A stretch of DNA of 19,513 nucleotides from an uncultured Nitrososphaerota archaeon (GCA_964594835.1 CAZQNA010000017.1:1-19513); one strand, 5' to 3'; numbered from the stretch's first letter, positions 3,742 to 19,513 are shown. The notes: generated from the sequence alone by a model not told the origin. Translations and numbers: made by a program.

Positions 3742-5820
3742 GTGGCGCGCCTCAGGAGACTAAGGGCCCTCCAAATCTTTGCGCTCCTGGCGCTAATTGT
3801 ACCTACAGCCGCCTCCCTGGGCTTCGGGGGTGGGCAGCAGAACCCTGACGCGCTACCCCGAGTCGAGGTAGGAGAGATCTTCACCGCGCACAGGGTTCAC
3901 CTGCCCGACGCTAGGGTATCGGAGCGACACCGCGTCGACGTGCGGATTAGAGTGCCAAGCCTCCGAGGGCCGGGCCCCCACAACGTCACTATCGCGGTCT
4001 TCCCCCAGGCCGGGCCGCTCAACCTGAAGCTCCAGCTAGAGGACTATCACGCGGCGGACTGGGCGAACGTCACCGTGAGCGACGAAGGCTCCCGCGTGGT
4101 GGTCCACGCGTGGAACATCACTGAAGACATCTTTTGGATCCACCTAGAGATCCGCCTGAACGGATCGGTTCGATGGGATCCGATAGACTTCGGATGGGCA
4201 GACCCCCCTCCCAACGATGTGCTGCTATTCAGGGAGGTTCCAAAGTTTGAGTTCCTACTCAGGGCCAGCGATCGAGCCCCACAGTCGCAGATAAAGGTCA
4301 TAGTGAACTCCCTCGCCCTCCTCCCATCCAGTAGGTGGTGGCTGGACACCAACCTCAGCGTGGAGGCCGAGTGGCTCGAGCCAAAGGATGGAGAGTGCTG
4401 GTTCTTCGCCAACCTCTCCGAGATCGAGCCCGGGCAGTACCCAATATCCCTTCGGCTGCCGCGGGCCGGAACTGTTAGCCGCTTCAGGCCGAATGTCCAG
4501 GCCGAACTCACGATCCCCGACTGGAGACTCGAGGATCTCGGCTACTCCGCGTCGGTGGACGGCAGGCCCGTGAACATCACCCTCTCATCGACGACCATCT
4601 ACAAAGCCGGGTACAGACTCCTGGCCGAGCCCCTTCCTGGGAGGAGCTTCACGCTCATGGGATTTGAAGAAGTTCCCGTGGAGTTCGAGGCGCCCGGCTG
4701 GTTCTCCGCAAGGCTGGATCCCGAGGGCCTCGAGAGGATCTTGGCTATCGAGATCCCGGAAGGCGTCGAGATAACGGACCTCAGCGCCAGCGAGACGGAG
4801 GTCCATGGGCGGGAAGCCCTCCTGCTGACCGTCAAGCTCTCCGAGCCAGCGAACGTCACCCTGCTGCTCGGGGTACCCCGACTGGCCTACCCCCTGGAGT
4901 TCGGCAGGTTCTACAGGTCGCAGATCCCCCAGGTGATTGTGGAGGAATTCACCAGGCCGGAGAGGCTCATCGAATCCGACGACCCCTTCGTCCGGCTGTG
5001 GGCGGATCAGGTCTTGGGCGACGAGGAGGACGTGGTGAGGGCGGCCTACTTGGTGGCCTACAACCTGTCGAACACGCTGGTCTACGACTCCGAGAAGGCC
5101 AACGCGTCCGAGAGCGGCGTCTGGCGCGGGTACGAGGGGGCCAAGGAGGCCCTGATGAGGAGGAAGGGGGTCTGCAGAGACTTTGCCAGGGCCGCCGTGG
5201 CCCTGCTCAGGGCCAAGGGCCTTCCGGCTAGATACGTCACGGGCTACCTGATAACGGGCGAGGACGTGAAGGGCGCCCACGCGTGGTTTGAGTTCTACGT
5301 CCCGGGCCTGGGGTGGGTTCCCGCTGATGCCACGGCCCCGAAAGGGAAGTCGAGGTACGTTGAGCCCAAGATCGGCGTGCTGAGTGACCACCTGTACGTG
5401 ACCGCGCTCTGGGGAAGGAACCTGCGTCCGGCGGAGACCGCTGGGGCGAACAGGAGCAGGGCCAAAGAGGTCTTGGCGGAGATGATAGAGCTGACCGGGC
5501 GGAAGCTGACCGGAGATCGGCTGTACGGTTGGGTCAAGGGGGAGGAGAGGGCGCTGGCGCTCGGAGAGCTGGGTGAGGCTGAGTACCTGCTGGCGAATGG
5601 GGACTACCACGAGGCGCTCGTCACCGTGGCCTGGGTTCAGGAGAGGGCGAGAGGTTTCCGCCGGATGGTCGTCGAAGTGATTGTGGGGCTATCGCTATTA
5701 GTGCTGTCTGCTTTAGGGGTCAAGCAGGTTTTCAAACTTATCCAGGGCGAGAAGTCACGCAGGAGGCTTTCATATTCCGAGGCTATTTCGGAGAGCCAGC
5801 AGCACGCCTGCCAACATTAA
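3742..5820 (+). CDS. Secreted, membrane-anchored transglutaminase-like (Cys protease fold) protein
   Basis: Signal-peptide-like N-terminus. GVCRDFA...GLPARYVTGY...HAWFEFY...GWVPADAT gives a Cys-His-Asp triad. C-terminal transmembrane helix. Confidence 0.9.
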   Translation: MARLRRLRALQIFALLALIVPTAASLGFGGGQQNPDALPRVEVGEIFTAHRVHLPDARVSERHRVDVRIRVPSLRGPGPHNVTIAVFPQAGPLNLKLQLEDYHAADWANVTVSDEGSRVVVHAWNITEDIFWIHLEIRLNGSVRWDPIDFGWADPPPNDVLLFREVPKFEFLLRASDRAPQSQIKVIVNSLALLPSSRWWLDTNLSVEAEWLEPKDGECWFFANLSEIEPGQYPISLRLPRAGTVSRFRPNVQAELTIPDWRLEDLGYSASVDGRPVNITLSSTTIYKAGYRLLAEPLPGRSFTLMGFEEVPVEFEAPGWFSARLDPEGLERILAIEIPEGVEITDLSASETEVHGREALLLTVKLSEPANVTLLLGVPRLAYPLEFGRFYRSQIPQVIVEEFTRPERLIESDDPFVRLWADQVLGDEEDVVRAAYLVAYNLSNTLVYDSEKANASESGVWRGYEGAKEALMRRKGVCRDFARAAVALLRAKGLPARYVTGYLITGEDVKGAHAWFEFYVPGLGWVPADATAPKGKSRYVEPKIGVLSDHLYVTALWGRNLRPAETAGANRSRAKEVLAEMIELTGRKLTGDRLYGWVKGEERALALGELGEAEYLLANGDYHEALVTVAWVQERARGFRRMVVEVIVGLSLLVLSALGVKQVFKLIQGEKSRRRLSYSEAISESQQHACQH

Positions 5821-5976
5821 AGATCCGTTCCCCCATGCGTTGCAGGGCGGAGCTTTTCGTTCACTATGTTAGCGATCAAGTTCGCATGAGCTCAGTAAGG
5901 TTGACTGATAATCGAAATTCTTGGTCCTAAGATCTAAGAGTTACCCAAATAACTATTTTGCAGGCGTGATCACATA

Positions 5977-6921
5977 ATGCGATCTGCGGAGAGGCAAGGG
6001 GAGCTGGAACGGTGCGACGGTAAAGAGGATCCGATAGAACTCCTCCTAAAGCACAAGAGAGAGTTGGCGTCCGCTCTTTTAGTGATCTTCGTTACCCTAT
6101 CGTATTTTACCAGCTTGCCTCCATCAAGATCAACTATTTACGTTAATTACTATGACCAATCCAAAAGCTCCGATTTCAGATTCTTGTTAAATGAACTAAA
6201 CAAAAAATGGAGGAAAGATGTCTTGACCAGGGAGGATCTCAACATAAGTCCATGGAACTTGAAAATATACAGAACAAAACTAGACCTCTTCAAGTACGAA
6301 AGGGACATCCTCTTTTTCAGGGTGGCGATATCTCGGTCGGACGGAGGTACTCTTACATCCCCCGTCCCATCTCCATGGGGCACAAGCACGCTCGGTAAAT
6401 CATTTGTAGAGCGGAATCTGGCGCTTCTCCTGATGGTAGAAGACGAAAAAGGATTGGTACGGGGTAAGTACACCCTTGAGATTTCGCTCAGGGATAATAC
6501 AACTTCCATAGAACTACCCTTTGCTCTGAAAGTCCCTGATGATATGAGGGGCAAAGATGTGACTGTGCACGCTTGGCTCTATGTTACAGGCGGGGATGAT
6601 AAAATAAGCTATATAAATCATGAAATATACGGATTAATTCCATACGATTACAAGGAGTATTGTAAGGTTTACAGTTACAAATCATTTCAAACGTGGGGTG
6701 AACTGTTTTCGATAGTCTTGCTATCCCAAAGCATATGGGGCTTGGTAGCAGGAGCTGCAGGGTGGACTTTATCCTGGTTAATTGGTTTAATTGGCAGAAG
6801 ATATCCTAGAATTTCGGTTGAGCTAGCTAAATATAAATCAGTTCTACTAATCTCGGTTTTAGCACTATTCTTATCCTTAATCTCGACCTTGATCGTTTCA
6901 TACTTAGTCTCAATATCATAG
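5977..6921 (+). CDS. Hypothetical membrane protein, low GC
   Basis: 314-aa ORF with one N-terminal and about two C-terminal hydrophobic segments. Two sampled 60-nt lines are 32% and 37% GC. Confidence 0.7.
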   Translation: MRSAERQGELERCDGKEDPIELLLKHKRELASALLVIFVTLSYFTSLPPSRSTIYVNYYDQSKSSDFRFLLNELNKKWRKDVLTREDLNISPWNLKIYRTKLDLFKYERDILFFRVAISRSDGGTLTSPVPSPWGTSTLGKSFVERNLALLLMVEDEKGLVRGKYTLEISLRDNTTSIELPFALKVPDDMRGKDVTVHAWLYVTGGDDKISYINHEIYGLIPYDYKEYCKVYSYKSFQTWGELFSIVLLSQSIWGLVAGAAGWTLSWLIGLIGRRYPRISVELAKYKSVLLISVLALFLSLISTLIVSYLVSIS

Positions 6922-7000
6922 TAGCTGAAGTTCTCCAAATTAGAGTAATGGGCGCCCCCAACACCCCCTGTCCTCTAGGAACCTGCAGGGCCCTAAAGGC

Positions 7001-7037: not shown

Positions 7038-7167
7038 GGGCCGGTGGCGCAGACTGGTAGATCTAGTCTCTGGGGGCTTCTCGGCTAAAATCTCCCCCGG
7101 AGACGGAGCCAAACGCGCCCCCTTGGCATGGGGGAGGTCGCGGGTTCGAATCCCGCCCGGTCCACCA
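7038..7167 (+). tRNA. tRNA-Ala(GGC) with a 53-nt intron (7061-7113) at position 22/23; CCA encoded
   Basis: Acceptor stem GGGCCGG/CCGGTCC with a G3:U70 pair. D stem GCGC/G|CGC is restored by splicing. Anticodon arm CCCCC-TTGGCAT-GGGGG, T arm GCGGG-TTCGAAT-CCCGC, ACCA end. Confidence 0.95.
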
Positions 7168-7239: not shown

Positions 7240-8640
7240 TTAGTTAGCTGTCACCCTTACGAGGGAGCTCCTCACCAACTCTCCGCTTCCACCCACCTCC
7301 AGCAGGATGAGCGCCCCCTCCCTACATCCTCCGATCCTGATGTACTCCTTCAGCTGGGCTTTGTACCTCCCGAGCGACGCCGGGGCAAACCTGCGCATCG
7401 GCCTCAGCGTGGTCTTCACGTCGACTGGTCCCACCTCGCCGCCAACGAATCTGGCAAACAGGTCGGGCCTGTGGTTCTGCTCATACAGCCGCCTCCAGCG
7501 GCTGGTTTTTACCCACCTCTCGATCCGCGAGCTGATCTCTCTCAACACCTCAAACTTGCCGCTCAGCCCGAGTTCTTTGACAATAAGCTCTCCAGCCTTC
7601 CCTAGCCTTGGCGAGGCGGACGCCCTATTGGCCCTGACCTCCAGTATGATCTCTTGGGAGACGTAGATTCGCCCATCCAAGGTGACGTAGTAGTAGAACG
7701 GCAGGCCGGTCAGTCTGACGCCGTTCTCCTCCAGCACGCCCCGAACCGTCCTGTCCCTGAGTCTGACCTCGATCTGACCTCTTCGGGGTACGTGCCACCC
7801 CAGCAGGGGCTTGTATCTCGAGTCCCCGGGAACTCCGACGTAAGATCTCCCGTTTGAGAGGAGCCTTAGCGTCAGATCCCCTATGGGGATGTCCACTCTC
7901 ATGACGCCGGGCCCTGCAGTTCTGCCTGATGACCCGATTCTCACTCTCTCCAACGGAAGTCGCCAAGTTACGCCTCCGACAGGCCTGATTAGGATACATT
8001 CCTCATCGACCTCTGTCCAGGGAAATCCCCTACAAATCTCCGAGATCAGCTCTCGCTTGCTGAGTTTGGAGATCTTGAGTTCCGTCAGTCCGGGCTTGAG
8101 CCCCTCCAGCTTGAGCCCCTTGCCCACCACCCTGGCTAGCGCTCTCCTCCCCTGCACCCTCACCTTCACGTACTCCCCCTCGACGCCCCACGCCCTGAGC
8201 AGGGGCCTGCCCACGTACAGCCTGCCGTTGGGCCTCACCACGACCAGCTTCCTCGCCCCCAGCAGCGACTGAGCAGCCTCCCTCGGCTCGGCCCCAGCCC
8301 TGAGGAGCTCCTCGACGTAGCCCAGCAGCCTCTGCTCTCCGGCCAGGCACCTCCTCTCCCTGGGCGGGAACTTCAGGAGGGTCAGCCTGATGGCCCTGAG
8401 CAGGGGGCCCGCGTCTTCGCCAAGCCTGGAGGCCAGGGACTCCAGGGCCCTCAGGGCGTCTGCTCCAACGCCCTCCGTCGAGGCGAGGAGCCTCAGCTCC
8501 CTCCAGGCGCCGGGCCCCTCGGCGCCACGGCGATCGCGGTCCGCGCGAGGGGGTGCGAGGCCCCCGTCAGCTCCCTCGAAAAAATCCGGGATCAGGGGGC
8601 GGCAGGCTCCGCAGTAGGCCGTCTCCACCGCTCGCCTCAA
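7240..8640 (-). CDS. Hypothetical protein with repeated AbrB-like hairpins and a C-terminal PD-(D/E)XK nuclease domain
   Basis: C-terminal LGKAGELIV...RPDLFA...VDVKTT...AQLKEY. Internal NGRLYV, NGRSYV and DGRIYV motifs. Start codon uncertain. Confidence 0.7.
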   Translation of the reverse strand: MRRAVETAYCGACRPLIPDFFEGADGGLAPPRADRDRRGAEGPGAWRELRLLASTEGVGADALRALESLASRLGEDAGPLLRAIRLTLLKFPPRERRCLAGEQRLLGYVEELLRAGAEPREAAQSLLGARKLVVVRPNGRLYVGRPLLRAWGVEGEYVKVRVQGRRALARVVGKGLKLEGLKPGLTELKISKLSKRELISEICRGFPWTEVDEECILIRPVGGVTWRLPLERVRIGSSGRTAGPGVMRVDIPIGDLTLRLLSNGRSYVGVPGDSRYKPLLGWHVPRRGQIEVRLRDRTVRGVLEENGVRLTGLPFYYYVTLDGRIYVSQEIILEVRANRASASPRLGKAGELIVKELGLSGKFEVLREISSRIERWVKTSRWRRLYEQNHRPDLFARFVGGEVGPVDVKTTLRPMRRFAPASLGRYKAQLKEYIRIGGCREGALILLEVGGSGELVRSSLVRVTAN

Positions 8641-8999
8641 AATCAGCTGCCTCCCGGCCCGGGAGGAAGGCCCTTATCCCCCTGTGCCCTGGCTCTGCTG
8701 CCGGGTCGGAGACCTCAGCGTTGGGGAAACATTCGCCGTCCGCCCGCCGGATATGCCTCACGGTTCAGATGTGGTGGAGACCCCCGACTAGGCCGGGCTC
8801 TCGCCCTCACCTCGCCGAGCTTTGCCTCCTCGCTGGCCTCTGCCCTCTCCCCTTCCCTCTCTTCTTTCTTGCTCCCTCGCCCGCTCCGCTTCTTCGGCTC
8901 TCGACCCGTTTTCGTCTCGCTTCCGCGTTTTCCTTCCTTCTCCCATCTCCTCTCTGGGGTCGGGCCTTACCTCCCGGGGCCGACCCCCTAACCCGCCCT

Positions 9000-9066
9000 A
9001 GGCCATAATCCGAGCTGGGTGACGTGAGGGTGGCGCCATGGCGCCACCGCCCCTCCACTCCAGAAA
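9000..9066 (+). repeat. Left copy of an inverted repeat (22-bp perfect core at 9000-9021)
   Basis: AGGCCATAATCCGAGCTGGGTG is the exact reverse complement of 11839-11860. Further shared blocks are GAGGGTGGCG, GGCGCC(A/T)CCGCCC and CCAGAAA. Contains the perfect 20-bp palindrome GGTGGCGCCATGGCGCCACC (9029-9048). Confidence 0.9.
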
Positions 9067-9136
9067 ACTTTCACATAACGGGATTAAGTGGCTCTGAAAA
9101 CCGCGAAAAGTTTCCTTATCGCGCAATAATTTAATA
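9063..9136 (+). promoter_or_regulatory. Promoter with two GAAA-NN-TTTC palindromes and a TATA-like box
   Basis: GAAAACTTTC at 9063-9072, GAAAAGTTTC at 9105-9114, AATAATTTAATA at 9125-9136. Confidence 0.55.
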
Positions 9137-9167
9137 CTGGGAGCTCGAGGCGGACACGGTGGAGGAC

Positions 9168-9329
9168 ATGGCCAGGCTCTCTGACAACCCGGTCGTGTGG
9201 GCCCTTCTGGTCGGGGGCGCGCTGGCCGTCGTAGGCGTGGCTCTGAACTCCACCGCCCTCCTGGCCCTGGGGGCCGTCATTTCCCTCGGCGGAATCCTGA
9301 TGGGGGTGGTCTACGCGGCAAAGAGGTGA
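9168..9329 (+). CDS. Small 53-aa two-helix membrane protein (absent from the ORF track)
   Basis: MARLSDNPVVWALLVGGALAVVGVALNSTALLALGAVISLGGILMGVVYAAKR. GGAGG just before the ATG, with an alternative in-frame GTG at 9159. TATA-like box upstream, GC3-rich codons, stop 6 nt before the next gene. Confidence 0.8.
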   Translation: MARLSDNPVVWALLVGGALAVVGVALNSTALLALGAVISLGGILMGVVYAAKR

Positions 9330-9335
9330 GCCAGC

Positions 9336-9623
9336 GTGGCCAGGAGGAGGGTCGTGGACATAGGGAGGAGGCGGTACGTCCAGTACGTGGACAGGAGGGG
9401 CAGGATAAGGAGGAATGTACCGTGGAGCAAGTACCTCCAGGGGAAGGAGGGGGCCAGGGCGGCCAGGGTGAGGGAGGCCAAGAGGGGGCTGGCGAGGCTG
9501 GCGATGGGCAGGATCCCCCTGGTGGGAGACGCCCTGGACGCCTACGAGGCCGCCAGGCACCTGAGGACGATAGCCAGCGGGGGGAAGGCGAGCAGGTCAG
9601 GCCGGTCCAGGCGGCGGAGGTAG
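9336..9623 (+). CDS. Small, highly basic Arg-rich protein
   Basis: 95 aa, host-like AGG codons, GAGGTGA Shine-Dalgarno overlapping the upstream stop. Contains GRIPLVGDALDAYEA. Confidence 0.75.
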   Translation: MARRRVVDIGRRRYVQYVDRRGRIRRNVPWSKYLQGKEGARAARVREAKRGLARLAMGRIPLVGDALDAYEAARHLRTIASGGKASRSGRSRRRR

Positions 9624-9639
9624 TCGAACCCGAGTCAGG

Positions 9640-9933
9640 TCAGGGGCCGTCCCTCTCCCTCCTGAGCTCCATCAGCGCCAGGGCCACCCTCACGCCGTCC
9701 CTCGTGAGGGAGAGCACCCTCATGCTCTTCCCGTGGTCGGTCAGGAGCCCCCTGGAGACGAGCCTCTTCGCGACAGACTTGAACTTGGCCCTGATGCCGC
9801 ACCTCCGAGCTATCTCCTCCCACCTTATGGCCCTGGCGACCCTCTCCAATGACGAGTAGGATCCCCCTATGAAGCCCTCCCTCAGCATCCTGATCAGGAC
9901 CTCCTCCTCGTGGGGCTCAAGCCCGGATTCCAC
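9640..9933 (-). CDS. Small winged-helix protein
   Basis: KSVAKRLVSRGLL...VLSLTRDG recognition helix and wing pattern. GTG start at 9933 or 9948. Confidence 0.7.
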   Translation of the reverse strand: MESGLEPHEEEVLIRMLREGFIGGSYSSLERVARAIRWEEIARRCGIRAKFKSVAKRLVSRGLLTDHGKSMRVLSLTRDGVRVALALMELRRERDGP

Positions 9934-9993
9934 AATTGTACAACTCACTTACACAAGTATTTTAGCTCGTCGAGACCCCCTTCAGGTCCGGTG

Positions 9994-10548
9994 ATGGGGA
10001 TCAAGGCCGAGGCCCGAACCGCCGCAGGAGGGAGGAAGAGCTTGGCACAGGTGGCGCTGGAGCTCGCCGAGCTTGGATCCAAGGTGAAACCTGGAGAGAG
10101 GCTCACGCCTCACTCGATCAGGTCTCTGGGGATCGACGCCAGCTGGCAGACCATCCTCAAGGCGGCCAAGCTCATGGTCAGCCTTCAGGAGAGGCTCTGG
10201 GAGAGGGGCTTGGCCGTCGAGGTCCTGAGGGACGGGAGGGAGTGGAAAATAGTCTTCAGGAGGAGGTTTGAGGGCCTGTCTACTGAGGAGGTGGCCAGAA
10301 GGGTTAGGGAGCTCTACTTCCCGAAACCCGATGAGGTGGACGTCCTCCTGGTCCGGCTCTTTAACCTGGGGGCCGACTCGCCCGATGGAGCCGTGAGGCT
10401 CCTCCCGGGGCCGGCCTTGGAGAGGGCGCTGGAGCTGGGCCTGGTGGCCGAGTCGGCCGGCCGGTACCACCTGACGGAGCTGGGGGTGGCCGCCGCCAGG
10501 AGCACGCTCAGGATGTATCCGGAGCTGAAGGGCGGAGAGTGGGTCTAA
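9994..10548 (+). CDS. Putative DNA-binding protein with wHTH-like domains
   Basis: LTPHSIRSLGIDASWQTILKA and ALELGLVAESAGRYHLTELG. Start at GTG 9991 or ATG 9994 avoids overlap with the divergent gene. Confidence 0.7.
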   Translation: MGIKAEARTAAGGRKSLAQVALELAELGSKVKPGERLTPHSIRSLGIDASWQTILKAAKLMVSLQERLWERGLAVEVLRDGREWKIVFRRRFEGLSTEEVARRVRELYFPKPDEVDVLLVRLFNLGADSPDGAVRLLPGPALERALELGLVAESAGRYHLTELGVAAARSTLRMYPELKGGEWV

Positions 10549-10590
10549 GGTAGCGAGGCTCACCGCAGGTCTTGTGTTTAGGTGCTGCTG

Positions 10591-10819
10591 ATGGGGGGCC
10601 AGGAGAGTTCGACGTAGTGATCGTAGAGGACGGAGGCAGGGCTATAGTGCTATTGTCCCGCTCCGTCCGGCTGTTACACCTAGAGCGAGACGATCGAGGA
10701 GTTGATGATCAACATCAGAGAGGCCGTTGAGTTCTACTCTGAATCCTGACCAGGGAGGAGCTTGAGCAGGTGAAGATCCAAGATGTCCGGAGGTCGTCGC
10801 CACCGAACTCGAGCTCTAA
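10591..10819 (+). pseudogene. hicB: Degraded HicB-family antitoxin
   Basis: EFDVVIVED (from 10605), GYSAIVP (from 10640) and GCYT*SETIEELMINIREAVEFY (from 10669) lie in three different frames, with TAG at 10681. Confidence 0.8.
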
Positions 10820-10825
10820 CTTGGC

Positions 10826-11761
10826 TCAGTAGACGGCCCTGCCCTTCCTCTTCAGCTCCTCCAGCCTCCTCGCCACGTGGGCTTTCTCTCCTTTACTCAG
10901 CCTCAGGAACGCCAGGGTCGCCAGCCTGCTCCCTGCCCTCGTGTCCACCCTGCCGCGCCTCGACTCGACCCACCCGAGCTCCTCGAGCTCGGAGATGGCC
11001 CTGATCGCGTGCCTCCTCCCTATGTTGGCCCTCCTGGCTATCTCGCTCTTGCTCAGGCCGTCCTCGGCCAGCAGGACCTCCAGCACCCTCCTGGCGGACA
11101 TGTCCAGCCTCGCGAGGTCGCGGTCTAGCCCGGCGGCCCTCTCGGGGATCAGGTTGATCCCTGGCGGGGGCGAGGTGACGGCGGCGGATCCCGCCCCCGC
11201 TTTGGCTGGGGTCAGGCTCGAGCTCGCTCCCGCTCCCGCTCTGGATACAGATCCAGCTCCGGCTCCGGCTCCCACGTCCGCGCCCGCGTCCAGGTAGCCC
11301 GCGACCTCCTCGCCCCCCAGGGGCAGGTTCAGGACGACCCTCAGCCTGTCCCAGGCCAGCCCGAGGGACGAGCGGACCAGCCTGGCGAGTCCCCTGACGG
11401 CCCACCCGAGCCTGCCCAGCTCCGCCAGGACGTACGCTAGGGCCCCGAGGAGCACCAGCGCGAGCGTGCTAGCTGCGATGGGCCCGCCCACGGCCACGAC
11501 GCCCCAAGCGGAGGCGAGCCCCCAGAACCCGAGGGTGACCCAGGCGAAGATCCTGGCGGCCCACCTCCTGGACCCGCCCAGCAGGAGGAAGAGCGAGGGC
11601 GTGAGGGCCAGGAGGAGCCAGACGAAGGAGACGTCCCCGAGGTCGGGGTGGATCAGGTAGATCGGCACCCGGAGCAGCAGGGAGATCAGGAGCGCCAGGG
11701 CGGGCGCCAGGATCAGCCTGGCCAGCAGCCTCAACCCGACTCGGCCCGCCCTCGGGGGCAC
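10826..11761 (-). CDS. Membrane protein with Gly/Ala linker and C-terminal MarR-like winged HTH
   Basis: About four hydrophobic segments, a GAGAGAG linker, then RRVLEVLLAEDGLSKSEIARRANIGRRHAIRAISELEELGWVE. Confidence 0.8.
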   Translation of the reverse strand: MPPRAGRVGLRLLARLILAPALALLISLLLRVPIYLIHPDLGDVSFVWLLLALTPSLFLLLGGSRRWAARIFAWVTLGFWGLASAWGVVAVGGPIAASTLALVLLGALAYVLAELGRLGWAVRGLARLVRSSLGLAWDRLRVVLNLPLGGEEVAGYLDAGADVGAGAGAGSVSRAGAGASSSLTPAKAGAGSAAVTSPPPGINLIPERAAGLDRDLARLDMSARRVLEVLLAEDGLSKSEIARRANIGRRHAIRAISELEELGWVESRRGRVDTRAGSRLATLAFLRLSKGEKAHVARRLEELKRKGRAVY

Positions 11762-11773
11762 AGCTTCTAACCG

Positions 11774-11860
11774 TTTCTGGCGCCGCGGGCGGCCGGGCGG
11801 AGGCGCCTCCCAGCCGCCACCCTCGCGCCCCCGGGCGCCACCCAGCTCGGATTATGGCCT
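11774..11860 (-). repeat. Right copy of the inverted repeat (22-bp perfect core at 11839-11860)
   Basis: CACCCAGCTCGGATTATGGCCT, with extended gapped similarity to 9000-9066. Confidence 0.9.
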
Positions 11861-11879
11861 GCTGGGGCTCGGAGGCGCG

Positions 11880-13904
11880 ATGCCCCGCTCAGCGCGGGGG
11901 GCGGCTCACGGCGTCGGCCCGGGCCCGGTCAGGATCAGGGTCCTGGGGCTCAGGTTCGAGTCCCGGGGCCGGCGCTTCAGGGCGCCGCCTCCGTTCGGGG
12001 GAGTCTTCTCCGTCCTGAGGGTCGCGAGGATTGATCCGGGGGAGCCTCAGAGGCCCGGGGCGCTGATCGCCGGCCTGGCGTCGGCCGGGGGAGGGGCGCT
12101 CACGTACCTGATCAGGCCCCTCGCCCACGGCGCGTTCGCCTCCGCCAGGGCCGCGGGCGAGGAGGGGCTCGCGAGGGCCGAGAGGGCGCTCGAGGCGGCG
12201 CTGAGGGTGGGCCTGGGGTTCGTCGATGTGGAGCCGGCTCCGGCCGACCCCTTCCACCTGGCCGTCCCCCTGGCCGGGGCCCTGCCGGACGGGTCGTGGG
12301 CCAGCCGGAGGTGCCTGCGCGTGCCAGGTGGGGGCGGGGTGAGGTGCCTGGCGGCGCTGGAGTTCCGCCTACCCGTCGACGAGGGGTCCCGTCGGGGAGG
12401 TGACGGGAAGGGGGAGGAGGGGCGCGCGCCGGACGTCGGCGCCCTGATCAGGGCCCTGGCCGGGGCCGGGGTGGAGGCGGCGCTGACGCTGTCGGTCTCC
12501 TCCCCCCGCGCCCTCCCCATGCCGAGGTCCCGCGCGCCCGACGGCCCGAGGGGCCACCTGGCCCTGTTCCTGCTCACCCCGGTGTCTGCGACGCTTAGAG
12601 AGGCCAAGAGGGAGGCTGACGCCCTGGCCTCGCTCGCCGAGGCCGCGGCAGAGTCGGCCCTCGGCTGGAGGGCTCGAAGGGTTGCGTGGCCCCGCCTGCG
12701 CCGGCTGGCGAGGGCCCTGCTAGAGAGGCGCGTCCCCTCCGGCGACCTGGGTCCTGGGGACCTCTCGGCGGTCGCCGGCGTCCCCGCGCTCCGGGGCCTG
12801 GGAGGGCTGACCTCGTGGTCCCCCGCGCCCACGTTAGACCCGCCGCCGGCGGTGGAGGGCGTGGAGCTGGGCGTGGCGCTCGGGCCCGGCTGGTCCCTCC
12901 CCCTGAGGCTGGCGCCGGAGTGGCTCCCCCTCCACGTGGCCGTCTTCGGGTCCCCCGGGTGCGGCAAGACGACTCTGGTCAGGGGCTTCCTGCGGAGGTA
13001 CTCCTCAGAGTACGGCGGGCCGGCGCTGGTGCTGGACAGGCACGGCGAGTACTCGGGCCTCCCCGGGTTCAGGGTTGTGAGGGTGGGCCTGGACCCCGTC
13101 GCCCTGGACCCCCTCGACCCCAGGGGGCTGGAGCCGGGCGAGGCGGCGAAGGCCCTCTGCGCCGTGTTCGGGGTGGTCTGGCCCGAGGAGTTCGGTCCCC
13201 TGATGGCCCACCTCCTCAGGGAGGCCTACGTGAGGGTCCTGGAGGGGCCGGGGCGCCCCTCGCTGGCGGACCTGGCGGGGGAGGTGTGGTCGATGGCCGA
13301 GTCCGGCGCCGGGCCCCTGAGGTCCAGGAGGGCGAGGGACGCCGCCTTCTCCCTCGCGTCGAGGCTGGGCGAGCTGGGGACGGGTCTCGTGGCCAGGGCC
13401 CTCGGCGTCGACTCGGGGCCGGGCGAGAGGCTTGCCGACCTCCTGGCGTCCGGGCGCCCCATAGTCCTCGACCTCTCCCGCCTCATGTCCGACGGGGACA
13501 GGACTCTGGTGAGCCTCCTCGCCCTGGCGGAGCTTGAGGGGCTGAGGAGGCGCCGGCCCGCCGGCAGGCCGCACGTCGCGGTGGTGGAGGAGGCGCACGC
13601 GGTTTCCCCTCCCGGGGTCTCGGGCGGGCTCGTCCCGAGGCTCCTGAGGGAGGCCAGGAAGTTCGGGGTCTCGGTGTGGCTCGTCGATCAGAGGCCGTCA
13701 AACGTGGCGCAGGACGCGGTGGGGCTCTGTGGGACCGTGGTGGTGGGGAGGCTCCTCCACCCCGTCGACCTGGAGGCGCTGGGGCTCACGCGCGGGGAGG
13801 GTCGGCCGGGGGGAGTTGACCCCTCCCTCCTGGGCGCGGGGGAGTGGCTGGTCAGGGTCCCGGGCTCTGGGTACTCGCTGATGAGGTCGCAGACGCCTCG
13901 GTGA
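11880..13904 (+). CDS. HerA/VirB4/FtsK-superfamily P-loop ATPase
   Basis: HVAVFGSPGCGKT (Walker A), LVLDRHGEY, IVLDLS, VAVVEEAH (Walker B), REARKFG and DQRPS. The ~330-aa N-terminal region was not recognised. Confidence 0.9.
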   Translation: MPRSARGAAHGVGPGPVRIRVLGLRFESRGRRFRAPPPFGGVFSVLRVARIDPGEPQRPGALIAGLASAGGGALTYLIRPLAHGAFASARAAGEEGLARAERALEAALRVGLGFVDVEPAPADPFHLAVPLAGALPDGSWASRRCLRVPGGGGVRCLAALEFRLPVDEGSRRGGDGKGEEGRAPDVGALIRALAGAGVEAALTLSVSSPRALPMPRSRAPDGPRGHLALFLLTPVSATLREAKREADALASLAEAAAESALGWRARRVAWPRLRRLARALLERRVPSGDLGPGDLSAVAGVPALRGLGGLTSWSPAPTLDPPPAVEGVELGVALGPGWSLPLRLAPEWLPLHVAVFGSPGCGKTTLVRGFLRRYSSEYGGPALVLDRHGEYSGLPGFRVVRVGLDPVALDPLDPRGLEPGEAAKALCAVFGVVWPEEFGPLMAHLLREAYVRVLEGPGRPSLADLAGEVWSMAESGAGPLRSRRARDAAFSLASRLGELGTGLVARALGVDSGPGERLADLLASGRPIVLDLSRLMSDGDRTLVSLLALAELEGLRRRRPAGRPHVAVVEEAHAVSPPGVSGGLVPRLLREARKFGVSVWLVDQRPSNVAQDAVGLCGTVVVGRLLHPVDLEALGLTRGEGRPGGVDPSLLGAGEWLVRVPGSGYSLMRSQTPR

Positions 13905-14016: not shown

Positions 14017-14331
14017 ATGCCGGTGGTCAAGACTCCGGGGGTCCTCGGCGGCTCCGCCAGAATCGAGGGCACGAGGATCGCGGTCTGGATGATCGTCTCG
14101 CTGATCAGATCAGGTTGGACCGTTGAGCAGATCCTCGAGGAGTATCCAGGGCTCACCAGGGAGCAGGTGGAAGAGGCCCTGGCCTACTACGAGGAGCACA
14201 GGGACGAGGTGGACGGGGAGATCGAGAGGGCTGATGAGCTATGGGAGATAGGTAAGAGACACTCTGAGGCGGATCTCAGGGCTAGAGAGGCCGAGGAGGC
14301 CCTCAGGAGGGCGCTGAGGGAGGCGGGGTGA
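14017..14331 (+). CDS. DUF433-family antitoxin (VapB45-like)
   Basis: PGVLGGSARIEGTRIAVWMI...GWTVEQILEEYPGLTREQVEEALAYY. TTTTATA box about 30 nt upstream. Confidence 0.9.
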   Translation: MPVVKTPGVLGGSARIEGTRIAVWMIVSLIRSGWTVEQILEEYPGLTREQVEEALAYYEEHRDEVDGEIERADELWEIGKRHSEADLRAREAEEALRRALREAG

Positions 14332-14341
14332 TCGTCTCCTC

Positions 14342-14698
14342 TTGGGCGCGCCGGGGCTTCGGATTCTCGCCGACGAGAACGTTCCATTAAAGGTGATCAA
14401 AGCCCTGGAGAGCTTAGGCGTGAAGGTACTGACGGTGGGCGACTTGGGCATCCGGGGCACCGGCGACGAGGAGGTCCTGGGGACCGCCGCCGGCCTTCGG
14501 GTTCCCCTCCTGTCCCTGGATGTCAAGGATTTCTCTAGGCTTCACGTCAGCTGGCTGAACGGTCGCATGGCTCACTTCGGAATAATTCTTGTGAGCACCA
14601 AGTCCCTGAGGACTTTGGGACCAGGCGGTGTTGCGGCCAGGGTCGTTGAGGTCCTCGGGTGGTATCGCGGGCAGACCGGCTGGGTACACTACGTGTAA
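14342..14698 (+). CDS. DUF5615 PIN-like toxin (VapC45-like)
   Basis: RILADENVP...GTGDEEVL...LLSLDVKDF...HFGII, directly after the DUF433 gene. Confidence 0.9.
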   Translation: MGAPGLRILADENVPLKVIKALESLGVKVLTVGDLGIRGTGDEEVLGTAAGLRVPLLSLDVKDFSRLHVSWLNGRMAHFGIILVSTKSLRTLGPGGVAARVVEVLGWYRGQTGWVHYV

Positions 14699-14771
14699 GC
14701 AGCGGCCGTCTGGCCCACTCAATAAACCCCCCTCGGGCGAGCCGTCAGATCGACGGAGCCCTTCGCGAGCC

Positions 14772-15392
14772 TCAGCTAGCGTCGAGTTCAACCCCCATCC
14801 TTCGAAGAGCCTCCGCAACCCTGCGCGCGCCTCGAACCCGTCTCTCCCTCATGATTTTCAGGTACTCCCCGAGCCTCCCCTCGTCTATCATCCGAAGCAG
14901 GCCGGGGGCGATCTCGTCCGCGAGGGGATACCTCAGGTAGATCGCGTCTATCAGCGTCTTCTCGGGCGTTGAGACCCTGATCCACTCGTCAACCTCACTC
15001 AGGCGGACCAGGTCGTATCCGAAGTACATCTTCGGGGAGATCCTCCTCAGGAGGACCTTGTATCCGCAGACGATCCTCTCTCCCCACCTCACCGCCGCCG
15101 ACACCAGGGGCGAGAGCACGGTCAGGGCCGTCACCTGCGTCCAAGCCCCGTGGATCAGGGCCGCCGAGCCCAGGCCGACGTACGACATCGGCAGGGCCTT
15201 CAACACCATGTACGGCGACCTCTTGAAGGTGTACACGCCCCTGGCGAGTTCGACGATCTCCCCCCTCCGCCTCAGCCTGTGTATGAAGACCTTCGCGTAG
15301 GCCCTCCCCACCGCCCCCTCGACCAGCCTGAACGTGAAGACGCTGGAGGACCTCAGCCTGTCCAGGAGCTGATGGTGCCTACGCCTCGGCGT
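14772..15392 (-). CDS. abiEi: Type IV TA AbiEi-like antitoxin
   Basis: N-terminal wHTH (VFTF...RLRRRGEIVELARGVY), SYVGLGSAALIHG and VSTPEKTLIDAIY. The frame extends upstream of GTG 15311 to an ACG at 15392. Confidence 0.8.
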   Translation of the reverse strand, partial: TPRRRHHQLLDRLRSSSVFTFRLVEGAVGRAYAKVFIHRLRRRGEIVELARGVYTFKRSPYMVLKALPMSYVGLGSAALIHGAWTQVTALTVLSPLVSAAVRWGERIVCGYKVLLRRISPKMYFGYDLVRLSEVDEWIRVSTPEKTLIDAIYLRYPLADEIAPGLLRMIDEGRLGEYLKIMRERRVRGARRVAEALRRMGVELDAS

Positions 15393-16032
15393 GGCGCCTC
15401 ACCTTCCTCACCACGGACTCGAAGCTCGGGGGGCGGCCGAGGAGGATCAGCTCCCTGAGCCCCTCGAAGTCGGGGGGAGGAGTCTCCAGCTCCGGCAGGA
15501 GGGATCTAAGCTCGGCACCGATCCCACAGTCCTCGCAGAGGTCCAGGAGGTAGTACACGTCGTACAGGTCTCTGGCCTTCCTCCTGTCCCGGAAGGCTCT
15601 GATCTTCTCCCTGAGGAGGTCACAGGCCGTGAGCACCCTCACGACCAGGCTGCCGCCGTCGGTCATCCAGTAGTCAGCCTCCGTGGTCTCGATCTCCCTG
15701 AACGGAGGGGAGGCCTCCAGCTCCACCTCGGCCCCGGACTCGTCCGCTACCCTCAGGTAGAGCACCCGCGACGGGGTGAGCTTGCTCCTCACCACCCTGA
15801 TCCCGGGCAGCGACCTGAACGCCTCCTCTATCCCCTCGGGCTCCCAGCAGTAGACGTCGACATCTATGGAGAACCTCTTCCCGCCGTAGACCCTCCACAC
15901 GGCCGCTCCCCCGTGGAGCACGAAGTCGAACCTCTTGGCCAGCTCCACCACCAGGAGGTCCTGGAGTTCGGCGATCCTGAGCAGCCTGCCCTTGAGGATT
16001 CGGGCCAGCGGGATCTTGGAGTGCGCTCCCAC
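15379..16032 (-). CDS. abiEii: Type IV TA AbiEii-like nucleotidyltransferase toxin
   Basis: FVLHGGAAVWRVYGGKRFSIDVD and EKIRAFRDRRKARDLYDVY. GTG 16032 preferred because a TATATATAA box lies about 20-28 nt upstream (16052-16060). Confidence 0.9.
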   Translation of the reverse strand: MGAHSKIPLARILKGRLLRIAELQDLLVVELAKRFDFVLHGGAAVWRVYGGKRFSIDVDVYCWEPEGIEEAFRSLPGIRVVRSKLTPSRVLYLRVADESGAEVELEASPPFREIETTEADYWMTDGGSLVVRVLTACDLLREKIRAFRDRRKARDLYDVYYLLDLCEDCGIGAELRSLLPELETPPPDFEGLRELILLGRPPSFESVVRKVRRHAEA

Positions 16033-16142
16033 ACAGTATCGTGGACCTGGGTTATATATATTGATAACCATGGTCTTTAGAATTGTCGAAGGCGCGGAGA
16101 GAAGGGTAATATATCGGACCCGAGCATTTTTCGCGATCTCAC

Positions 16143-19068: not shown

Positions 19069-19119
19069 AGTTGGGCGCCGCGGGGGCAAGGTATTATGGG
19101 ACCCGGTCCCCGCGGCTCG

Positions 19120-19492: not shown

Positions 19493-19513
19493 TACATGAT
19501 TTCTATGGTGTTT

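Follow-up and report, generated by a model that had tools for sequence, protein, structure and literature searches.

Two outward-facing copies of a putative promoter-operator module in a toxin-antitoxin island of an uncultured archaeon

The inverted repeat and the module around it

This report concerns two short sequence arms in inverted orientation on a contig of an uncultured Nitrososphaerota archaeon (GCA_964594835.1, CAZQNA010000017.1:1-19513) and the genes that lie between and beyond them. The contig, complete at 19,513 base pairs (bp) within an assembly of 1.82 megabases (Mb) and 24 contigs, is referred to here as the window and its genome as G000; databases label near-identical proteins Korarchaeota or Thermoproteota archaeon, and to our knowledge almost nothing is known of gene control in the Korarchaeota-labelled lineage. 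Leading away from the arms are a gene for a protein of 466 amino acids (aa) on the left and a gene for a HerA/FtsK-superfamily ATPase on the right. An earlier note on this DNA had proposed that the arms are either recombination sites of an invertible or mobile cassette, acted on in trans, or duplicated promoters co-regulating the ATPase and a nuclease. On balance, and with modest confidence, we favour a version of the second proposal, in which the arms would be two diverged, outward-facing copies of one archaeal promoter-operator module and not the ends of a cassette. The features on which the argument turns are as follows, with lengths in nucleotides (nt).

7240..8640, minus strand: 466-aa gene without a known family, at 360 nt from the left copy
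8641..8999, minus strand: leader, purine-rich and apparently non-coding, from the left module to the 466-aa gene
9000..9053, minus strand: left module, with a GGCGCC palindrome, two boxes and ATTAT
9000-9024 (exact core 9000-9021): left arm, pairing with the right arm
9009-9005, minus strand: left ATTAT, after the second box
9029-9048: left palindrome, perfect, 20 nt
11795..11860, plus strand: right module, with a palindrome, the same two boxes 21 nt apart and ATTAT
11799-11810: right palindrome, GGAGGCGCCTCC, 12 nt, read from the sequence
11836-11860 (exact core 11839-11860): right arm, 2811 nt from the left arm
11851-11855, plus strand: right ATTAT, the predicted TATA-like box of the ATPase gene
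11880..13904, plus strand: HerA/FtsK-superfamily ATPase, 674 aa

The arms are 25 nt long and match at 24 positions (96% complementary), and a repeat search of the window bears out the exact 22-bp core described in the earlier note. This core is the longest exact inverted repeat of the window, and its length was reached in none of 100 dinucleotide-preserving shuffles, whose longest repeats measured 13-18 nt. Likeness continues inwards from the arms: 9000-9053 aligns with 11795-11860 if gaps of 10 nt and 4 nt are allowed, with 53 of 66 nt identical, and the portion beyond the 25-nt core scores 29, a value reached by none of 1000 shuffles (mean 14.5, maximum 28) and by none of 961 other window segments. 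The gapped similarity previously put at 67-87 nt therefore stands, although its length falls just short of that range. The GGGTG(A/G)CG and GGCGCC units reported within it are present, as is the hairpin, in the form of the palindromes listed above. Outside the arms the flanks show no convincing likeness, their score being equalled or passed in 16 of 500 shuffles, and the recommended genome search for more copies of the 22-mer returned only the two arms, with no third copy in the 1.82-Mb assembly at up to 3 mismatches, nor at up to 5.

Among the 41 genomes searched, G000 included, only two others, both of the same genus (G004 and G003), gave strong DNA matches to 8600-12300. Six copies of the module were aligned, four of left type and two of right type, each read towards the gene it faces, and the order of elements is the same in all six: a palindrome, the box CGCCACCCTC, the box CG(T/C)CACCCAGC, a 4-nt spacer and an A/T run. 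The palindrome is of GGCGCC type in the aligned copies and ACGCGT, also a palindrome, in the left copy of G003, while the A/T run occupies the same place in 6 of 6 copies as ATTAT, ATTTT or TTTTT. In the left module of the window the boxes read, on the minus strand, CGCCACCCTC and then CGTCACCCAGC 11 nt further. The 11-nt spacing is found in the four left-type copies and a 21-nt spacing in both right-type copies, which share a 10-nt insertion relative to the left copy; because it is common to both, the insertion predates the G000/G003 split, and with the boxes 11 or 21 nt apart it leaves them on the same face of the helix.

Within its own intergenic region, each copy is the stretch with the best conservation. 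In the left module (9000-9036) the three genomes agree at 29 of 37 columns, and in the leader next to it at 148 of 359; compared with G003 alone, the window is identical at 30 of 37 positions in the module and 174 of 371 in the leader. For the right module the corresponding comparison with G003 gives 47 of 62 identical positions in 11799-11860 and 31 of 99 just upstream. The similarity between the two modules takes in the upstream region and the A/T box and stops 5 nt past that box, limits that would fit a regulatory module and not a duplicated gene segment.

The same likeness could, however, be a relic without present function, the module having been copied in inverted orientation during reshuffling of the surrounding island and kept alike by the recency of that event or by gene conversion. 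The island is a mosaic with many breakpoints, and the arms of the window are identical over 22 nt, whereas the two copies of G003 match at 14 of 22 (manual count). Furthermore, in an assembled contig of sequencing run X3 the left arm differs from the window at 9006, while the contig over the right arm is identical to it; these data, which come down to one or two sites, hint at gene conversion between the arms in the lineage of the window. Against a relic, left- and right-type copies persist where the flanking DNA is 47-73% identical or unrelated, the right copy holds its distance to the ATG in two species, and the 10-nt insertion common to both right-type copies implies that the module duplication itself predates the G000/G003 split. 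We therefore regard a functionless relic as unlikely.

Inversion, transposition and the DNA between the arms

Inverted repeats around a few kilobases of DNA call to mind the site-specific invertible segments, namely the Hin/Gin/Fim-type switches and the shufflons. Here a recombinase encoded elsewhere would flip 9000-11860 through the 22-nt cores. The exactness of the repeat over 22 nt is in keeping with such a switch, the conversion hint shows that the arms may meet, and recombinase genes do exist in the genome, with four tyrosine-recombinase matches and one serine-recombinase match (PF00589, PF00239) confined to contigs C3 and C7. As the earlier note had stated, however, no recombinase or transposase family appears among the 28 open reading frames (ORFs) of the window scanned against Pfam, and elsewhere in the genome no similar site lies near any recombinase gene at up to 5 mismatches. 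Orientation was judged from the contigs of four runs from three studies (32 of 666 pieces listed), and these are assembled contigs, not reads, so that they hide rare forms, starts and ends. The left arm is bridged in two of the four runs (X1 and X3) and the right arm in all four (X1, X3, X5 and X6), always in the orientation of the window, and the four joints listed are all short-sided skips, with no strand change among them. The interior genes likewise keep one orientation relative to the left arm in G004, in G003 and in the metagenome contig L023, which matches the window at 96.8% over 8968-10749. The proposed comparison of both orientations, carried out on these contigs and relatives, thus returned only that of the window. 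Moreover, G004 has one arm only, and, were a crossover to occur within the identical cores, neither the TATA boxes nor the genes downstream of them would change, so that inversion would switch nothing obvious. Unlike the Hin/Gin/Fim switches, then, the locus has no recombinase of its own, a single orientation in the contigs and relatives compared, and no obvious element to switch, and we consider inversion very improbable.

Even less credit can be given to the arms as terminal inverted repeats of a non-autonomous transposable element or of some other mobile cassette of 2.86 kilobases (kb), although a 25-nt terminal inverted repeat around an interior without a transposase is what such elements possess. 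The arms are flanked by AACCCGCCCT and GCTGGGGCTC, which differ, in agreement with the earlier statement that there is no target-site duplication; the genome holds no further copy of the arms or of the interior, and an empty site was looked for in vain. Of the 36 genomes of the family, 3 contain the core pattern, always at this locus, and in G004 and G003 the homology runs across the supposed left end, while the right arm of G003 stays with the ATPase gene and has a different inner neighbour. The proposal that the arms are recombination sites of an invertible or mobile cassette thus finds no support: the interior does not behave as a unit, homology with relatives continues past the left end, and neither a target duplication nor a further copy is present.

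The relatives show how variable the interior is. In G004 the order is tRNA, a 421-aa gene, a homologue of 8635-9037, a homologue of 9539-10545 and then unrelated DNA with HepT/MNT; homology crosses the left end, and the left arm is kept at 2 mismatches. The right arm and the ATPase gene are absent from the 19 kb of G004 that were fetched, and the G004 genome gives no match to the ATPase. Lacking from G004 is 9038-9538, which holds the second half of the palindrome, an A/T-rich promoter region, all of the 53-aa gene and the 95-aa gene to two thirds of its length (both listed in the last section). The junction (L011 10037-10040) lies at a shared CGCC and looks like a microhomology deletion. In G003, one short contig carries a left-type copy together with PIN/UPF0175, DUF433, HicB/HicA and a membrane winged-helix gene, and another contig carries a right-type copy before a HerA homologue, with unrelated DNA further upstream. 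A scan of metagenome contigs for the module motif gave 4 stretches, of which L023 alone is related to the locus, the other three sharing nothing else with it. With the interior different in three species and G004 retaining the left copy only, the DNA between the arms is not a unit; the constant element appears to be each arm with the gene it faces. If the promoter-operator reading is right, an inverted repeat around genes of a defence or toxin-antitoxin island need not mean mobility.

The genes that the two copies face

In the promoter-operator reading each module, read towards its gene, would comprise a GGCGCC-type palindrome, two direct RCGYCACCC boxes, a short spacer and a TATA-like ATTAT. 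At the right copy, transcription would begin at or next to ATG 11880 and yield a leaderless messenger RNA for the ATPase; at the left copy, a minus-strand transcript from about 8980 would carry a 340-nt leader and a Shine-Dalgarno site ahead of a strain-variable gene, here the 466-aa gene. The two CACCC boxes would be the likely site of a shared DNA-binding regulator, their helical phase being kept, and the interior 2.86 kb would be whatever falls between two outward promoters in a mosaic island reshuffled between species. The repeat, its conservation, its geometry and the variable interior are observed; that the modules act as promoters, where their transcripts begin and that a regulator binds the boxes are inferred here from sequence.

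The right copy is the stronger case. Its ATTAT ends 24 nt before ATG 11880, occupying positions -29 to -25 as the earlier note had it, and is the sole A/T run of at least 4 nt within 11735-11879. In the ORF list ATG 11880 is the first start codon of the open frame, and no further start was seen by eye in roughly the first 50 codons. The same geometry recurs in G003, where ATTTT lies 25 nt before the ATG of the HerA homologue. It also recurs across the genome: for 936 long ORFs with at least 40 nt free upstream, the spacing between a 6-nt A/T box and the in-frame start that follows it, counted from the end of the box, shows a sharp peak at 22-26 nt (46, 53, 51, 48 and 40 cases, respectively), with about 6-16 at 0-17 nt. 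This box-anchored count replaced profiles built on guessed start codons, which wrong starts had blurred. The peak is best read as the signature of leaderless transcripts in this genome, and its spacing fits the description, in parts of one transcriptome study (PMC5316973), of a TATA box whose centre lies about 27 nt ahead of the start site. The right A/T box, at about 27 nt before the start, resembles in this respect the archaeal leaderless promoters with TATA box and B recognition element (BRE) treated in those parts of the study, and the spacing is genome-wide here. It is quite likely, on these grounds, that the right copy is the predicted promoter of the ATPase gene. A second similar box in the window, TATTAT at 19092-19097, stands 22 nt before ATG 19120, as had been pointed out; it overlaps a longer listed ORF starting at 19096, and the true start is probably 19120, with a leaderless transcript.

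The role of the left copy is less certain. Its ATTAT predicts a minus-strand start near 8980, where a start codon is absent, and the transcript would run through a leader that is long for archaea, given that archaeal 5' untranslated regions are mostly 0-50 nt in portions of the same transcriptome study (PMC5316973). The leader nonetheless contains blocks conserved in three genomes (8956-8980, 8714-8741 and 8641-8675), and its insertions and deletions between species are not multiples of three, which argues that it is not coding. A conserved GGAGG (8654-8650) lies 9 nt before TTG 8640 in a small hairpin, CCTCCCGG/CCGGGAGG. The 5' block at 8956-8978 is complementary to 8658-8680, and comparable complementarity of the leader ends is found in L011 (G004; 10093-10104 with 10410-10421) and in L012 (2640-2660 with 2949-2969); arms at the same relative places form the top or only long-range inverted repeat of the leader in G004 and G003. 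Across the three genomes 89% of the cells of this helix are paired, as opposed to 30-64% when the alignment is slid. The Shine-Dalgarno site and the paired ends would fit one leadered RNA from about 8980 to 8640, for which no Rfam family was found in 8400-12000 at an expectation value (E) of 1 or less. The 3' arm of the leader helix overlaps the hairpin by which the Shine-Dalgarno site would be masked; the 5' arm holds the same CCGGGAGG and could thus compete for that hairpin, such that the end pairing may act as a translational switch.

Alternatively, the right copy could be the sole promoter, with the left copy an operator, a boundary, a decoy or part of the promoter of the 53-aa and 95-aa genes, and with the 466-aa gene transcribed from elsewhere. 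In its favour are the missing start codon at leaderless distance, a further invariant block, GGCGAATGTTTCC at 8727-8741, in which another promoter could lie, and the 20-nt perfect palindrome at 9029-9048, which resembles a dimer binding site. This arrangement is at odds with G004, which keeps the left copy though the rightward promoter and its genes (9038-9538) are missing, and with the A/T run kept in all left copies; nor is there an A/T box 22-32 nt before TTG 8640, the nearest, TTAT at 8674-8677, lying at 33 nt and not being kept in G004. We rate it as quite unlikely.

Several observations nevertheless weigh against the left and right copies being a pair of regulated promoters. The left copy lacks a start codon at leaderless distance and needs its 340-nt leader, whose fold is not unusually stable (z-score -1.5); with three sequences, covariation in the leader helix falls short of significance, 165 of 500 shuffles doing as well. 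Across the genome, A/T runs of 5 nt give a weak peak (11, 10 and 11 cases at 24-26 nt over a background of about 3-9), so that ATTAT would be a modest box, and no purine-rich BRE is visible, the AGCTCGG that precedes ATTAT not being A-rich. In these points, as in the unusual length of the left leader, the locus departs from the TATA/BRE leaderless promoters. The two-box pattern has no further occurrence in the genome and hence no regulon to support an operator, no local DNA-binding protein accompanies the module in all three species, and the carriers of the module are three species and a few strains, all close kin. Finally, there is no RNA run among the 22 runs listed.

Paralogous operator sites are known to put separate promoters under one regulator, for example where promoters around transcription-factor genes are divergent or duplicated. 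The present modules are similar in having repeated boxes before a TATA box, a palindrome, a phase-preserving insertion and regulator-like genes nearby, and they differ in that the pattern is unique in the genome and no local candidate is kept in all three species. If the promoter-operator reading is true, the locus would represent a small, clean cis-regulatory duplication in an uncultured archaeal lineage, and would offer two predicted start sites and a candidate operator, composed of two phased boxes and a palindrome, in which the box spacing varies naturally by one helical turn.

The ATPase is recognised by Pfam DUF87 (2.8e-10), by the PADLOC model mad8 (1.6e-18) together with HerA models, and by HerA chains of the PDB, although it reaches 46 bits where the curated HerA models set a cut-off of 970; about 330 residues ahead of its Walker A site match no family. 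At 75.8% G+C the gene stands apart from the genome (64.9%), in which only 2 of 1783 two-kb windows reach 74%. Of 43 genomes of the phylum, counting G000, just 3 yielded a homologue, and the ATPase is found in G003 and G002. In G002 the C-terminal end of the ATPase is present and is directly followed by an ABC transporter gene. L037 (G001 C43) also matches the last part of the ATPase, over 20 residues at 2295-2354 (75%, E 6e-5); this match lies inside a segment common to G001 and G004 and may be the remnant of a lost ATPase gene.

The 466-aa protein has no sequence match in Pfam, PADLOC, NCBIfam or PDB, and its putative nuclease nature comes from a motif, E...PD...DxK, read by eye near the C-terminus in 3 aligned homologues (E351, D393, D407-x-K409). 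Its structural model has a mean predicted local distance difference test (pLDDT) value of 54.6, with the C-terminal third below 50, and a wide fold search with this model returned only helical-bundle matches, over residues 36-128 and with Z no higher than 7.3. A word-based search found 2 relatives, and HMMER over all libraries 4 other proteins, all weak (E 1.7e-9 to 2.7e-4); scans of metagenome and genome contigs found none, and the first 60 residues alone match the protein itself and one relative. The gene body is covered at half depth in run X1 and uncovered in run X6, which indicates that the gene is exchanged even between strains. The 421-aa gene of G004 (L011 10400-11665) and the 466-aa gene are unrelated and have the same conserved leader upstream. 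The two proteins share only their first 25-40 residues, with the stretch LxP(D/E)FFEG, and the 421-aa protein looks LAGLIDADG-like to the eye, a likeness that in Pfam stays under the cut-off (E 0.0054).

Of the duplicated outward-facing promoters first proposed, then, the promoter part is supported by the leaderless distance, the geometry in G003 and the conservation of both copies, but the co-regulation of ATPase and nuclease has become weak: the 466-aa protein occurs in 0 of 4 sister genomes though two carry the ATPase, its gene begins 360 nt from the module, and the nuclease motif was read by eye. When the ATPase (674 aa) was modelled in complex with residues 1-320 of the 466-aa protein, the prediction scored 0.00 and yielded no verdict. 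HerA-effector defence pairs such as Sir2-HerA, as portrayed in parts of one paper (PMC13434337), offer a partial parallel, in that a HerA-superfamily ATPase lies in a toxin-antitoxin island near a gene with a nuclease-like motif; here, however, the ATPase and 466-aa genes are divergent and 3.2 kb apart, form no operon and do not co-occur in the sister genomes. A more speculative reading, which we hold to be a long shot, is that the modules mark a fixed defence-island slot, with a HerA-type motor to one side and an exchangeable effector to the other, that one regulator on the phased CACCC boxes would turn both on jointly, and that the modules would also be recombination points for swapping cargo and effector among strains. 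The effector would be PD-(D/E)xK-like here and LAGLIDADG-like in the sister, and the shared first 25-40 residues could be a docking peptide. In wider terms, a HerA-like ATPase of foreign composition beside exchangeable, apparently nuclease-like genes merits attention, as far as can be inferred so far.

Interior genes and the surrounding island

Between and around the arms lie the following features.

7038..7166, plus strand: tRNA gene, bounding the variable island; Rfam tRNA, 31.7 bits at 7097-7160
9168-9329, plus strand: 53-aa hydrophobic protein
9336-9623, plus strand: 95-aa very basic protein
9640-9948, minus strand: 102-aa gene, divergent from the 184/212-aa gene; no Pfam family above the cut-off
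9994 or 9910 to 10548, plus strand: 184/212-aa gene; no Pfam family above the cut-off
10648..10746, plus strand: HicB antitoxin remnant, with in-frame stops
10826..11761, minus strand: membrane protein with a C-terminal winged helix (Pfam HTH_24 and others)
14017-16071: two toxin-antitoxin pairs, DUF433 with DUF5615 (PIN-like) and AbiEi with AbiEii

The 53-aa and 95-aa genes have an A/T-rich promoter region of their own at 9126-9137. The pair of 102-aa and 184/212-aa genes is common to G000 and G004, at about 87% protein identity, and the membrane winged-helix protein to G000 and G003; for the 212-aa protein, an atlas search gave no match at 0.9 or above. The membrane protein probably starts at TTG 11734, as judged from its homologue, which is found in G003 only. 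Of the three local winged-helix proteins that the earlier note had mentioned, this one is confirmed by its Pfam helix-turn-helix matches, whereas the protein of 9640-9948 has no such match and that of 9910-10548 only a weak one to DUF7059. Over 33 aa the HicB remnant matches the intact G003 protein at 58% (E 6e-10). It adjoins the membrane winged-helix gene, and G003 keeps an intact HicB with HicA at the same place.

Between the tRNA and about position 16,100 the contig, which comes from a hot-vent archaeon, forms a mosaic island of toxin-antitoxin genes. The region of 14017-16071 differs in G004 (HepT/MNT), in G001 and in G002, where HerA joins the ABC transporter gene directly. ARAGORN called no tRNA at 7038-7166, and the Rfam score lies just above threshold; by eye the gene reads as tRNA-Ala(GGC), its D-arm holding an intervening sequence of about 50 nt. 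A candidate attachment site, a repeat of the tRNA 3' end at 11159-11196 (74%), sits in a coding region and was taken as chance. Just before the tRNA, the stretch 5750-7000 is low in G+C (43.9%) and holds a 314-aa gene without a family, whose product has hydrophobic ends and which looks foreign.

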